The position numbers were made by a program, and so were the translations under genes. Positions 6,245 to 28,782 of a DNA stretch of 64,000 nucleotides are shown here, piece after piece. A model generated the notes under the pieces. The model saw nothing but the letters and a program-made list of their open reading frames with translations, had not been told where the DNA came from and searched no databases. The DNA comes from a virus, in IMG/VR virus record IMGVR_UViG_3300021399_000004, positions 96,001-160,000 of that record; one strand, given 5' to 3'. Position 1 is the first letter of the stretch. Every line of letters starts with the position of its first letter.

Positions 6245-6634
6245 TTGAGTATGATGTACATGCTGATTGGTTGGACTGACGGTTTCGGTAACGATGCTTA
6301 CGTGAAGAGCGTCTATCAGACGAGGGAAGAGGCACTCGCGGCGGCGATGCTGGATGATGAGATCCCTGACAAAGTTATTCCGTTTGAGTTTGGAGAAGCG
6401 ATTGATTTTGACTATGATGCGGCGGAAGATCTTGTGGAAAGGAAAGAAGAAATCGACTGGTTGCTTGTGGCTATAAACGCGGTGGATGATGATAAGTTTT
6501 ACTCCTTGCACGAAGAATGGTTTAATACTGGCTGCAATGAAGAAGAGGGAGACGGAGATGACGTTGATAAGTTAATTGCAAATCATAAAGATTGGCTGGA
6601 AGAATACTACAAAGAAAAGGGCGGCAAAATTTAA
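6245..6634 (+). CDS. hypothetical acidic protein (about 127-129 aa)
   Basis: ORF track. GGAGG lies at 6235-6239. ATG 6251 is a possible alternative start. No TAG. Confidence 0.55.
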   Translation: MSMMYMLIGWTDGFGNDAYVKSVYQTREEALAAAMLDDEIPDKVIPFEFGEAIDFDYDAAEDLVERKEEIDWLLVAINAVDDDKFYSLHEEWFNTGCNEEEGDGDDVDKLIANHKDWLEEYYKEKGGKI

Positions 6635-6764
6635 GGGAGGCTATGGCCTCCTGGCCGGCCCGCTTCCAAATAAATTTCTCAAACCTCTGACAATCTATCT
6701 CACCTATGTTATAATGAACATGTTGAAAGCAGAAGGACACTGCTCAAACCGGAAAGGAAAGACT

Positions 6765-6959
6765 ATGGAAAAGAACACTAACTCTCGCAACGGCATCGGT
6801 TTTACTGGCCTGCTTACCATTGCTTTCATTGTGTTGAAGCTGTGCGGCGTGATTACTTGGTCTTGGGTATGGGTTCTGTCTCCGATTTGGATTTCTGTTG
6901 GGATTGCTCTGATTGCTACTGGGCTGCTGGTGATTGTCCATCTTATCCGGAAGCATTGA
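6765..6959 (+). CDS. small membrane protein (64 aa)
   Basis: In-frame ATG within ORF 6576..6959, preceded by GGAAAGGAAAG. It has its own cTGACA-N17-TATAAT promoter upstream and two hydrophobic helices. Confidence 0.5.
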   Translation: MEKNTNSRNGIGFTGLLTIAFIVLKLCGVITWSWVWVLSPIWISVGIALIATGLLVIVHLIRKH

Positions 6960-6974
6960 GCATATGAGTATAAT

Positions 6975-6999
6975 AAAAAAGCCGGTCACCGGCTTTTTA
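6975..6999. terminator. bidirectional rho-independent terminator
   Basis: A6-GCCGG-tca-CCGGC-T5, located between convergent genes. Confidence 0.7.
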
Positions 7000-7011
7000 T
7001 TTAGGACGCAT

Positions 7012-7031
7012 TTAGATGTTTAAACATCTAA
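7012..7031. repeat. 20-bp palindrome, copy 2
   Basis: Centre TA. It sits at a convergent gene junction with no adjacent promoter. Confidence 0.95.
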
Positions 7032-7075
7032 AATCCTTTATAAAAAAAGTTAGGTTTCCCTAACTTTATAGTTTA

Positions 7076-7330
7076 TTATTTATACAAAAGGCACAGGAAG
7101 TAAACATTGAGGACAACGCTGGAGAGGTGCATGAGCACGTCATTGACGTGCCTGTGCTGCGACAAGTCCTTGCATACACCGAATAGCGCAATCGCAAGGC
7201 CGAACCATGAGACTTGAAGGCCGAAGAGCATAATCAGGACTACATTCAGGATAGTGATTCCGCACCGAAGATCATTCCATTCAAAGCGATACGGCATTGA
7301 AATGCCAAACCAGTTCTTTACTCGCTCCAT
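7076..7330 (-). CDS. hypothetical membrane protein (84 aa)
   Basis: ORF track. It is hydrophobic. Its start overlaps the upstream stop (TAATG). Confidence 0.55.
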   Translation of the reverse strand: MERVKNWFGISMPYRFEWNDLRCGITILNVVLIMLFGLQVSWFGLAIALFGVCKDLSQHRHVNDVLMHLSSVVLNVYFLCLLYK

Positions 7331-7623
7331 TATTCGTTATCCTCCATCGTGTCCTCGTAGCCGTAAACGTCACCCGCCCAACGGATTTCATCTTCTGCAA
7401 AATCCGTAGGGGCATCGGGATCAACGTCATCCGCGGCAAGCCAGTCTTCCCAAGTGGGGAAGAAGGCGTAGAAATCATCGCACGCTTCAATCGGATCTTC
7501 CATGTGGCACAGATTGCACTGGTCGCAGTAGGGGCAATCGCCATAGGCATTAACAGGGCAGTACACGGGGTCGCCGTTGCGGTAGCCGTCAGTTTCGTAG
7601 TGGTAATCCTTCATCGTGAACAT
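7330..7623 (-). CDS. Cys-rich acidic protein (97 aa)
   Basis: ORF track 7330..7692. The start MFTMKDY at 7623 follows GGAAAGGA in the cassette leader. It contains CPVNAYGDCPYCDQCNLCH. Confidence 0.55.
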   Translation of the reverse strand: MFTMKDYHYETDGYRNGDPVYCPVNAYGDCPYCDQCNLCHMEDPIEACDDFYAFFPTWEDWLAADDVDPDAPTDFAEDEIRWAGDVYGYEDTMEDNE

Positions 7624-7701
7624 ATCTGTCAATCCTTTCCGTTCCTCTCTCGGGAACAATGCTATTATAGCATGGAGGTTAGTATTTGTCAAGGGATAGA
7701 A

Positions 7702-7721
7702 TTAGATGTTTAAACATCTAA
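7702..7721. repeat. 20-bp palindrome, copy 3
   Basis: Centre TA. It lies 9 bp from the minus-strand -35 TTGACA (7687-7692). Confidence 0.95.
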
Positions 7722-7734
7722 CCTTGTTTAAGAG

Positions 7735-26470: not shown

Positions 26471-26588
26471 GTATAAATGCATAAAAAGATCTATATGTAT
26501 ATATGTATAAATATAAATAATTATCAATATTTTTATTTATTTATATGTAAGGAATGAATAAATATATTAATAATCATAAACAATATAC

Positions 26589-26621
26589 ATAATAATAATA
26601 ATAATAATAATAATAATAATA
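26589..26621. repeat. (AAT)n trinucleotide repeat, about 11 units
   Basis: Direct reading of the sequence: aataataataataataataataataataataat. Confidence 0.9.
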
Positions 26622-27158
26622 AAAATCTTTTATTGTAAAATCTATCATTATTATAAAGCGACAAATATTATAATGTTTATTATAAATATTAATATTACTT
26701 ATTATATTTTGATTATTTAATTTATTTTAATTAGCAGCTGCGAAAATTTTATTAATAATATATTATTATCGCTGATCTATTTATCTCTTGTTCATTAATA
26801 TATTATAATAACTCACGTGCCTGACACTGGCTATGTATAAAGTTAAGAAACTTTTCCATAAAGGCGCCCTTCCTACATAGTTCTTTGAAGAAGAAGAAGA
26901 TGAATAACTAAATAATCTTAACATCTAAAAAGATACATCTAAAAATTCTGAGTTTGTTTAGCTCTTTTATTTATAAACATAAAGTAGCTTGCTCTTTTGG
27001 ATATAAATGTAATGTGGCTTATCGGTTATTGTTAGATGTGTTAAAAATTATATGATGGTTATTTTTCAGCTCGTTTTTAGATCATTTTTTATTGCGACTT
27101 TATTCAACTGTATATGCACACATCTAAATAATGAGTTAGAAGAACCATACAAAAAGTC

Positions 27159-27182
27159 CCTCTGCCCGGCGGGGCAGAGGGT
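27159..27182 (-). terminator. strong GC hairpin terminator at the end of the GC-rich operon
   Basis: CCCTCTGCCC-ggcg-GGGCAGAGGG. On the minus strand it is followed by ACUUUUUG. Confidence 0.7.
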
Positions 27183-27196
27183 GGAAGGGAAGGGGC

Positions 27197-27400
27197 TCAC
27201 CCCTTCCTGCAGCAGAAGTGAGTGGTCACGGGGTAGAGCCGCATGATATGCTTAACGATTTCGTAGGTGCCGCGGTAGGACGTCTCGTCATTGACTTCCC
27301 ACTCTTCACCGGTTTCAACGACGCGGAGGCGGTAACCGAGGCAGAGGTAGTTGGTGGCAGTGGCATAGTCGCCATGGGAAATCTTGAATTCCTTCATCAT
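27197..27400 (-). CDS. hypothetical protein (67 aa)
   Basis: In-frame start MMKEFKISHGDY after GAAAGGAAGG, within ORF 27197..27616. The TGA lies in the loop of GGAAGGGG-ctca-CCCCTTCC (27188-27207). Confidence 0.5.
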   Translation of the reverse strand: MMKEFKISHGDYATATNYLCLGYRLRVVETGEEWEVNDETSYRGTYEIVKHIMRLYPVTTHFCCRKG

Positions 27401-27464
27401 TGTATGTACCTTCCTTTCATTTGATGGGTCGGGCGGGGAGGGGGTGTGCCCCTCCCCGTTCGTC

Positions 27465-27683
27465 TTACCACAACCACTGGCGGATTTCCTGCATGATGCC
27501 GCGGTTCCAGTTGCGGCGGTCTTCGAAGTAGAACCCGCGCGCCTCGGGGTAGTGTTCGCGCGCCTTGCTGTACTTGCGCTCCTTCCACAGGTCAAGTTCG
27601 TCTTCGTCGAGGTCAAGGTTCAAGGTGTAGCGGTCGATCTCGATCTCGTCGCCGCACTCGTCAATCATAATCAGTACCATCAT
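27465..27683 (-). CDS. hypothetical acidic protein (72 aa)
   Basis: ORF track, in the GC-rich island. Confidence 0.5.
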   Translation of the reverse strand: MMVLIMIDECGDEIEIDRYTLNLDLDEDELDLWKERKYSKAREHYPEARGFYFEDRRNWNRGIMQEIRQWLW

Positions 27684-27743
27684 TTTTGTATCCTCCTTTT
27701 TTGTGGTGGGGAGGGGAGGGCTTGCGCCCTCCCCCGAGGGGCT

Positions 27744-28055
27744 TTACTCGGCTTTGGTCTCGTACCAGTAATCGTCGTTGGTGTTCCAGGCGTGGAACTT
27801 GTGCAACCACTCATTGTTCCAGAACTTGATCACGTCCTTGTAGTTCCAGTAACCGCGGTACCACGCATACAGGTGGGTGGTGTAGGTGAAGGAAACGGTG
27901 GCGGTGTAACCGGTGCTGTCCTTCGCGTCGCCCTCGAAGCGGAGGGTCAGCGGGCGGCGGTCGGTGTAGAAGAAGGAGCAAGCGGTGGCGAGCCAGCGGA
28001 GCATGTTGATCAGGTCGGTGTAGCAGGGGGCATGGACGGTGATGGTGCACTTCAT
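27744..28055 (-). CDS. hypothetical protein (103 aa), paralogue of 23654..23965
   Basis: ORF track. It shares the C-terminal WNTN(D/E)xYW motif with the paralogue. Confidence 0.55.
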   Translation of the reverse strand: MKCTITVHAPCYTDLINMLRWLATACSFFYTDRRPLTLRFEGDAKDSTGYTATVSFTYTTHLYAWYRGYWNYKDVIKFWNNEWLHKFHAWNTNDDYWYETKAE

Positions 28056-28125
28056 GGTGTTTTCTCCTTTCGTGGTTGAAGAGATTTGAGGTGGGTGGGG
28101 AGGGCTCGCGCCCTCCCCGTGGGAA

Positions 28126-28782
28126 TTACCCCAGCAGGTTGTACGGGTTCTCAGCGATCCAGCGGGTCTTGGCCGGGGCCTTGGGGTTGAGCCAGTTCTG
28201 AATGGACATCGTGGTGGTGCCCTTGCTGCTCACCTTGAAGGTGTCCGTGCGGAACCAGTAGAGGGGGTCGCCCTTGGCCCGAGGGAACTCGGCGAGCCAG
28301 TCCATCCAGTCGCACCAGCGGGCGAGGACGAACACATCGTTGGCGGGGTTGAACACGACCAGCAGGGACGTCCGGGCGGCGAAGTTGTTGACGAGCGCCT
28401 CCGGGGAAGGCAGGACCCCGTGATAGGTCAACCACGTCCCGCCGCCGCTCTTGCACTCGACCGGACGACCTTCCCAGTACAGGTCGGTCTTGCCCTGCGA
28501 GCGGGGGAACAGGTCGCCCCAGTGGCAGGTGGTGGCCTTGCGCCAGTACAGGCGCAGCATCGCCTCGGCCGTCTTGCCGCCCCGGCCCCAGTCCGCGGTG
28601 TTCCACAGACCGCTGACCCAATTGATGGCGGGCATCCACAGGTCGCGGGGCACGATGGTCTTGTTGAAGTCGAGGCCCTGTTCGGCCAGCCACTCCCACG
28701 CCTTGCCACCGCACAGGTCGGCGGGCAGGGTGGACTGCAGAGTGGCGAGAATCTCGGGGGTCAGGCGGGTGATCATGGACAT
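28126..28782 (-). CDS. hypothetical protein (218 aa), possible PD-(D/E)xK-type nuclease
   Basis: ORF track 28126..28974. The start MSMITRLTPE follows AGGAGG. GKTDLYWEGRPVECKSG fits a D...ExK pattern; this is weak evidence. Confidence 0.5.
   Translation of the reverse strand: MSMITRLTPEILATLQSTLPADLCGGKAWEWLAEQGLDFNKTIVPRDLWMPAINWVSGLWNTADWGRGGKTAEAMLRLYWRKATTCHWGDLFPRSQGKTDLYWEGRPVECKSGGGTWLTYHGVLPSPEALVNNFAARTSLLVVFNPANDVFVLARWCDWMDWLAEFPRAKGDPLYWFRTDTFKVSSKGTTTMSIQNWLNPKAPAKTRWIAENPYNLLG

Follow-up and report, generated by a model that had tools for sequence, protein, structure and literature searches.

Partial recoding of a stop codon, in which early genes stay compatible with the code of the host, has already been published for phages (Ivanova 2014; Yutin 2021, PMC7886860; Borges 2021/2022, 10.1101/2021.08.26.457843). 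These phages read TAG as glutamine (Gln) in their structural and late genes and keep a subset of genes free of in-frame TAG, and the code has been proposed to act as a translational timer. The same description applies to the DNA analyzed here, a stretch of 64,000 nucleotides (positions 96,001 to 160,000 of the IMG/VR virus record IMGVR_UViG_3300021399_000004; hereafter, the window), in which a block of 44 genes between positions 6251 and 28782 carries no TAG in frame or as a stop. What sets this phage apart from the published cases is that a recurring module of candidate operator and promoter is enough to delimit the compatible class from sequence; no gene of that class in this genome contains an in-frame TAG, and none ends in one. 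It also belongs to another lineage, being a Firmicutes-type SPbeta/phAss-like siphophage and not a crAss-like or Lak phage.

A close parallel is phAss-1 (proposed Phassvirus group), described (PMC10607447) as a siphophage of ~130-140 kb with a giant tape measure and TAG read as Gln in 28% of its open reading frames (ORFs). It shares with the window an exonuclease-like gene of the array described below and a long, TAG-poor stretch of small genes. Its repeated promoter, TTGACATAAAAAAATTTTTATGGTATAAT, is a different one; it occurs 23 times, and here it is the spacer that forms the palindrome. These copies are nearly invariant, lie at 55-126 kb (L074-L076), and are all on the strand that carries the non-structural genes; no mention of them was found in the available portion of the phAss-1 paper. 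Their promoter-proximal genes, in contrast to those of the window, are not strictly TAG-free.

A second parallel is SPBRE, a short conserved element bound by the master repressor MrpR (YopR) in the Bacillus phage SPbeta (PMC10516654). It occurs in the promoter regions of many transcription units; a role as repressor site was first proposed for it and subsequently demonstrated. The window likewise holds a repeated element in intergenic promoter regions (38 copies), a likeness by description only; SPbeta has ~10 sites, against 38 in 19 kb here and up to 40 in relatives. When the proteins of the window and its flank were scanned against Pfam and PHROG, no recombinase-like (MrpR-type) protein was detected, MrpR itself not having been compared directly. 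The host-takeover module of the Bacillus phage SPO1 also consists of many small genes of unassigned function, with several strong sigma-A early promoters and terminators; it differs in its standard code and in grouping its genes in operons rather than singly, and it is not known to have a shared palindrome at every promoter. No description of the palindrome and cassette architecture reported here was found in the searchable literature, nor any earlier case of a DNA motif that defines a TAG-free class. The early/late partition of the code is known, and the architecture that marks it appears undescribed.

To avoid circularity, gene calling accepted no stops other than TAA and TGA and gave TAG codons a score of zero, so that TAG-containing ORFs competed equally; the choice among ORFs was based on codon usage, the start codon and the ribosome-binding site. 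A sliding-window codon-usage frame plot was set aside in favor of this ORF-level scoring, because it was too noisy for small genes and was misled by GC-rich ones. Within 6251-28782, this procedure yielded 44 genes and 4,555 codons, with 3 genes on the plus strand (6251-6634, 6765-6959 and 10418-10921) and 41 on the minus strand. No in-frame TAG was found, and the stops comprise 35 TAA and 9 TGA. A preliminary description, made from the sequence alone, had reported about 43 ORFs and 4,500 codons without TAG in frame or as a stop. Its tally was accurate, and the absence was confirmed both by the TAG-neutral calling and by independent public gene calls (metagenomic contig ENA ERZ28612961 scaffold_147, 129,144 bp, in which the window is the reverse complement of 18833-82832). 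The public calls read through TAG, giving the helicase as 469 amino acids (aa), and their gene list in the block is identical. Only three TAG-bearing ORFs were picked inside the block. Those at 8253-8357 and 25709-25870 have low scores and no ribosome-binding site; for the third, 23332-23499, an alternative TAG-free start with a GGAGG site exists. The block genes are thus code-neutral and can be translated whichever meaning TAG has, as had been claimed. The counts in the window were as follows:

Late genes 29133-61929 without the tape measure gene: 5,247 codons, 55 TAG (1.05%)
Tape measure gene 43434-60260: 5,608 codons, 178 TAG (3.17%)
Genes left of 6000: 1,519 codons, 17 TAG (1.12%)
Block 6251-28782: 4,555 codons, 0 TAG

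At the late-gene rate, the Poisson probability of finding no TAG in the block is 1.8e-21. A comparison of TAG counts with the expectation from Gln codons, which the preliminary description had set as a test, was run in the window: if the block's 107 CAA/CAG codons had the 30% TAG share of the late genes, the zero observed would have P = 5e-17. Under the most conservative null, taken from the TAG-poor small genes just past the left end of the window (3 TAG in 2,301 codons), the probability is 0.0026. The earlier estimate of ~3.2% TAG in the tape measure gene agrees with the value found (178 of 5,608), but the ~140 TAGs projected from it for the block were about three times too many; since the tape measure is a Gln-rich outlier, a fair expectation is ~48. 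TAG is also avoided as a stop: 0 of the 44 genes use it, compared with 11 of 63 genes in EF1, a relative with the standard code (P = 2e-4).

The claim of a completely TAG-free 22-kb block holds for in-frame codons and fails for the DNA as such. Coding sequence makes up only ~61% of the 22.5 kb, every copy of the intergenic palindrome has TAG on both strands, and 60 off-frame TAGs persist inside the genes, which makes the depletion specific to the reading frame. Codon usage sets the two gene classes apart more broadly, as they have opposite preferences for the standard Gln codons. Cassette genes in the window favor CAG over CAA (78:29) and late genes favor CAA over CAG (100:31); across the family, the corresponding counts are 1,340:715 for cassette genes and 1,155:547 for flanking genes.

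The block is not uniform in composition. It begins with a palindrome array, continues with a 3.2-kb AT-rich spacer, and ends with a four-gene GC-rich operon. Its features are:

6135..25239, no strand assigned: array of a 20-bp palindrome, TTAGATGT-N4-ACATCTAA, with one copy in almost every intergenic gap
6251..6959, plus strand: two rightward TAG-free genes, 6251-6634 and 6765-6959 (gene calls, public calls, module anatomy)
7076..23965, minus strand: 37 small genes of 33-350 aa, read leftward, none with an in-frame TAG (gene calls, cassette anatomy, public calls)
7624..7758, minus strand: example intergenic module, starting with the terminator (a GC hairpin and a T-run) that ends gene 7759-8229
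10418..10921, plus strand: rightward TAG-free gene (gene calls, module anatomy)
23966..27196 (3.2 kb), no strand assigned: AT-rich spacer with a GC content of 12-25% and no credible gene (gene calling, composition)
27197..28782, minus strand: four-gene GC-rich operon, TAG-free and without palindromes, with a GC content at third codon positions (GC3) of 0.75-0.93 (gene calls, composition)

The palindrome has 38 matches, 37 of them perfect, where shuffled sequences predict 0.08, and none occurs anywhere else in the 64-kb window. The array coincides with the TAG-free stretch. Coding density between 6135 and 25239 is ~70%, with regular gaps of ~130 nucleotides (nt). Along the direction of transcription, each module consists of the GC hairpin and T-run of the upstream gene, the palindrome, a gap, a promoter, a hairpin in the 5' untranslated region (UTR), a ribosome-binding site (AGAAAGG or AGGAGG) and the ATG. 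In the example module, the palindrome (7702-7721) is followed after a 9-nt gap by the promoter TTGACA-17-TATAAT (7664-7692), a GTTCCC...GGAAC UTR hairpin, a ribosome-binding site and an ATG at 7623. Around 35 near-consensus sigma-A promoters, of the form TTGAC(A/T)-17-TATA(A/C)T and often with an extended -10 TG, adjoin palindromes and lie 19-98 nt (mostly 30-55) upstream of start codons. The UTR hairpins are of two conserved types, GTTCC-loop-GGAAC and GTG-AAGGAAAA-CAC followed by AAACCAGAAAGG. With terminator-like hairpins preceding the palindromes, nearly every gene is its own unit; almost all of the 37 leftward genes come with the complete set, from terminator and palindrome through promoter and UTR hairpin to ribosome-binding site. 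An integron-like cassette array was considered and rejected, as integron cassettes are promoterless and nearly every cassette here has its own promoter; no integron integrase was detected in scans of proteins from the window and flank.

Each palindrome lies 7-39 nt upstream of the -35 element, and the gap clusters at 8, 18, 29 and 38 nt. In relatives the gap is 9 nt in 469 of 661 modules (71%), with minor peaks at 19-20, 29 and 40 nt. These steps of ~10 nt indicate 10-bp helical phasing, which is expected if a DNA-bound protein has to face RNA polymerase. The palindrome is probably the site of a dimeric regulator, and this could be a repressor or an activator.

The three rightward genes are built along similar lines. 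The palindrome serves 6251-6634 and 10418-10921 in opposite orientation or divergently: the former has the palindrome at 6135 and a promoter at 6174-6202, and the palindrome 10309-10328 sits between the promoter of the latter (10358-10385) and the divergent promoter of 9188-10198. Gene 6765-6959 has its own promoter and no palindrome. Recognizable array products are two DEDD-like exonuclease-like proteins (phrog_20187), a PcfJ-like protein and a 5'-nucleotidase-like protein, the remainder being mostly without assigned function. About half of the 37 leftward genes have homologs in the arrays of relatives.

The pattern recurs across a family of viruses. The exonuclease-like array protein encoded at 18141-18902 has 851 homologs. 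Two relatives from ENA whose contigs encode it, L086 and L088 (~185 kb each), carry 27 and 24 copies of a palindrome variant with an N3 loop in the same layout; their array genes are TAG-free, and their helicases contain 3 and 10 TAG. Scans of IMG/VR, GTDB species genomes and JGI metagenomes with the N4 palindrome returned only single chance matches, the N4 pattern being unable to match the N3-loop form of most relatives. A scan of IMG/VR with the N3 form identified arrays of 8-40 copies in ~35 viral contigs of up to 189 kb, most of which share less than 5% of their 21-mers. Taking as cassette genes those that start no more than 260 nt downstream of a palindrome, the relatives have 745 cassette genes with 15 in-frame TAG in 81,619 codons (0.18 per 1000), compared with 516 TAG in 61,417 codons (8.4 per 1000) for 329 flanking genes (Fisher P = 1e-165). 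The TAG is near the 3' end, close to the terminator, in about 11 of the 13 TAG-bearing cassette genes, so that the simplest reading is that these are rare genuine TAG stops (~1.5% of genes). In a clear case, L088 6773-7006, the gene appears to end in '...EEG-TAG' within its own terminator stem, and readthrough would add 13 residues. Ordinary transfer RNA (tRNA) genes for Ile, Phe, Leu, Ser and Lys also occur within or beside the arrays of L161, L095, L102, L134, L147 and L172, none with a CTA anticodon.

Gene content overlaps by one-third to half between arrays, with shuffled order and common paralogs. In L210, a strain from another sample with 99% identical flanks, a 395-bp cassette takes the place of exactly one ORF and its terminator (13063-14154, the PcfJ-like cassette). 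Breakpoints were located to the palindrome edge and to the shared 5' UTR, consistent with homologous exchange. The array is thus modular and exchangeable, and it stays TAG-free despite the change in content.

The right end of the block differs in composition from the array. The AT-rich spacer contains five palindrome-and-promoter modules, four of which (24429-25239) have no ORF and share a conserved ATATGCGAGCTGG box ~110 nt downstream. Beyond these modules come AAATGAAAT-rich DNA, a (GTATATAT)n microsatellite (~26150-26400) and, near 26590, an (ATA)n run. ARAGORN and Rfam searches of the window, its ORF-less cassettes included, gave no tRNA and no known RNA family. The spacer could be a small-RNA or replication-origin region. 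GC-rich genes number five in this phage of ~38% GC, the four of the operon and 23654-23965, and they are separated by GGGAGGG...CCCTCCC hairpins. Related arrays contain essentially no homologs of them, with a single weak match of 27% for the 218-aa gene among them, and these genes look like recent acquisitions from a GC-rich source. They account for 563 codons of the block, and their composition leads one to expect few TAGs there anyway.

These features raise the question of whether the absence of TAG is only a by-product of origin or composition, through recent acquisition of standard-code DNA, a chimeric assembly, or a GC content that makes TAG rare. The block has a GC content of 0.47 against 0.37 for the late genes, GC3 ranges from 0.29 to 0.93 between genes, and the spacer and GC-rich operon lie at the junction with the late genes. 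However, composition would not spare the off-frame TAGs, and the block holds 78 CAG codons that are each one transition from TAG. Genes newly acquired from a standard-code source would be expected to end in TAG in ~17% of cases, where none does. A chimera is countered by independent assemblies that reproduce 7448-25919 at 99% identity, and by the arrays of relatives, which adjoin homologs of the sigma-like, terminase-like and portal genes in 19-25 of the sequences searched. This explanation is close to refuted.

Both flanks of the block hold TAG-bearing genes, and their features are:

326..3677, minus strand: tightly packed leftward genes without palindromes, some TAG-free and some with 1-3 TAG
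4334..5788, plus strand: ResIII-type helicase gene with 8 in-frame TAG and its own promoter, at the left edge of the TAG-free block
29077..29106, plus strand: perfect sigma-A-type promoter, TTGACA-18-TATAAT, without a palindrome, which heads the late module
29133..61929, plus strand: recoded structural module with a sigma-factor-like gene (3 TAG), two putative terminase genes named by position, portal (11 TAG), scaffold-like, capsid, tail and tape measure genes

If TAG is taken as a stop, the structural module breaks into fragments; if it is taken as a sense codon, a tight run of long ORFs appears. The tape measure (178 TAG), the portal (11), the helicase (8) and others are full length only in the latter case. 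To establish the meaning of TAG, window TAG sites were aligned with relatives for the helicase and the first five late-module proteins. Gln stands opposite these sites in 101 of 452 cases (22%), against a background of 2.9%; the reciprocal count at the relatives' TAG sites gives Gln in 118 of 450; and of 15 sites that could be aligned with the standard-code Enterococcus phage EF1, 4 have Gln there. Gln is thus the meaning with the best support, and the phage reads TAG as glutamine in most structural and some replication genes. In the same six proteins, TAG itself is opposite window TAG sites in 66 cases (15%). TAG sites thus turn over fast, yet array genes at 60-90% identity stay TAG-free in relatives, which points to selection and not to lack of time.

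The recoded module also informs the affiliation of the phage. The tape measure is a single 5,608-aa ORF matching PF10145 (4.7e-31), and the portal matches phrog_2739 (3e-67). The major capsid protein is 36% identical to that of phAss-1, 31-32% to those of the Enterococcus phages EF1 and VRE9, and 24-27% to those of SPbeta-like Staphylococcus phages, with an overall range of 31-42% over phAss-1, EF1/VRE9 and gut virome contigs. The contig is 129 kb, its name may point to a sheep rumen data set, and the longest contig with an identical array protein is 140.5 kb, in a group that ranges from ~130 to 140 kb. By homology, giant tape measure and genome size, the window is assigned to a siphophage of the SPbeta-like/phAss-1/Enterococcus EF1 group. 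Capsid homology places it within the group for which TAG-to-Gln recoding of 28% of ORFs is described (PMC10607447). A megablast search with the late region found no close phage relative in GenBank, which holds only distant relatives at the protein level. The names of the sigma-like, terminase-like, portal and capsid proteins rest on PHROGs or gene position, as these proteins had no Pfam matches. The tape measure has ~7% of its codons as Gln or TAG, and its counterpart in phAss-1 is 3,149 aa long.

The 33-kb late module has a single near-consensus sigma-A promoter. Its first gene (29077-30428 with the promoter) matches a PHROG annotated as a sigma factor and has a zinc-ribbon-like tail; carrying 3 TAG, this possible late transcription factor may itself depend on suppression. 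The helicase promoter (4334-4362) is likewise a perfect sigma-A promoter without a palindrome. On the left, the proteins encoded at 1559-1759 (3 TAG) and by its paralog 1.1-1.3 kb past the left end of the window (L001 12168-12377) are 66 and 69 aa long. Both have weak, sub-threshold helix-turn-helix matches, which makes them possible candidates for a palindrome-binding regulator.

The preliminary description had placed the helicase and several small leftward genes on the recoded side of a sharp partition. The recoding of these genes was borne out, with TAG counts of 8 for the helicase, 1 for 326-622, 2 for 1324-1533, and 3 each for 1559-1759 and 2072-2263. The partition is sharp in one direction only: every gene of the block is TAG-free, but the left flank is mixed and five late genes also lack TAG.

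We consider it likely that the TAG-free block is an early regulon read in the standard code, with the change of code timed by suppression. The block would then act as an array of ~40 self-contained expression cassettes, each placed after an intrinsic terminator and each combining one palindrome, in helical phase upstream of a near-consensus sigma-A promoter, with a UTR hairpin, a strong ribosome-binding site and a small ORF. Unmodified host RNA polymerase would transcribe the cassettes as soon as the DNA enters the cell. Early ribosomes would treat TAG as a stop, and selection would purge every CAG-to-TAG or CAA-to-TAG change in the cassettes; TAG stops would be avoided in turn because they would be read through after suppression starts. 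The late genes, helicase and sigma-like factor would be complete only once amber suppression is active, giving a translational delay, and the latter two would be transcribed early and completed after the switch. We infer that a phage suppressor tRNA performs this switch. A host-type promoter at every gene and a distinct codon usage support the published early-gene reading. The fit to that idea proposed at the outset is strengthened by the promoter and palindrome array and its family-wide recurrence, the timing being predicted from sequence.

Several observations weigh against this explanation. Early expression of the cassettes is a prediction from promoter type. ARAGORN found no tRNA gene within the 64-kb window or in the 9.4 kb past its left end, and none of the 8 tRNAs in 775 kb of relatives' arrays and flanks has the CTA anticodon of a suppressor; phAss-1 differs in this respect, with three known Sup-CTA tRNAs. 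The perfect sigma-A promoters at 4334-4362 and 29077-29106 drive recoded genes, so that the TAG-free class tracks the palindrome and not host-type promoters as such. The four genes of the GC-rich operon are TAG-free without a palindrome, which is weak evidence given their composition. Finally, five genes within the late module are TAG-free (35908-36522, 36538-37605, 37670-38107, 38600-38875 and 41422-42405).

These five late genes comprise the major capsid protein, its neighbors and the putative major tail protein, and the capsid region of phAss-1 is TAG-free too. The virion proteins of greatest abundance thus seem to shun the recoded codon, and at least part of the avoidance is tied to something besides timing. 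Expression level could in principle explain all of it, if suppression is slower or leakier than normal decoding and the cassette genes, with their near-consensus promoters and ribosome-binding sites, are all highly expressed. Avoidance in the array is nevertheless all-or-none and not graded, covering 44 of 44 genes here and ~98% of 745 in relatives, including tiny lineage-specific ORFs. The helicase, sigma-like and portal genes have equally good promoters and ribosome-binding sites, yet contain 3-11 TAG. Expression level thus plays a part in TAG avoidance, and as the whole explanation it is unlikely.

The self-contained units are also compatible with accessory genes of the 'moron' type, which would be expressed from the prophage of a temperate phage and would keep the standard code because the lysogen has no suppressor. 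Each array gene has its own promoter and terminator, a combination that is reportedly the classic definition of a moron (Juhala et al. 2000). A temperate lifestyle is known from the SPbeta relatives, and lysogeny genes without TAG have been described in recoded prophages by Borges et al. Yet no integrase or repressor gene is recognizable in the window or the 9.4 kb past its left end, and no N4 palindrome array was found as a prophage in 185,579 species-representative genomes, a search that covered the N4 form only. That every promoter has a common, helically phased control site further points to co-ordinated switching and not to constitutive accessory expression. We regard prophage expression as improbable.

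The early regulon read in the standard code has one bolder extension, in which amber suppression would be a two-way clock. A palindrome regulator that itself bears TAG would make the arrival of the suppressor turn the late genes on and the ~40 cassettes off, and the same modules would serve as recombination joints that shuffle cassettes between phages. Two candidates, each with 3 TAG, could fill this role: the sigma-like factor (29133) and the protein with the weak helix-turn-helix match (1559-1759). This extension is speculative, and we hold it to be doubtful.

The proposal that phages use the code as a timer rested mostly on functional guesses of which genes are early and which late; here, a candidate early class can be read from the DNA. 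This provides a clean statistical test, in which 745 cassette genes from ~35 genomes have ~46 times fewer TAG than their neighbors and almost none end in TAG. It also offers defined parts for experiment, namely the promoter modules, the candidate operator and the TAG-bearing regulators. For annotation, it means that one genome can hold code-neutral and code-15 gene classes, and that calling with a single table breaks the late genes. For the biology of the family, a cassette array with gene-by-gene replacement is a likely store of host-takeover or anti-defense genes.

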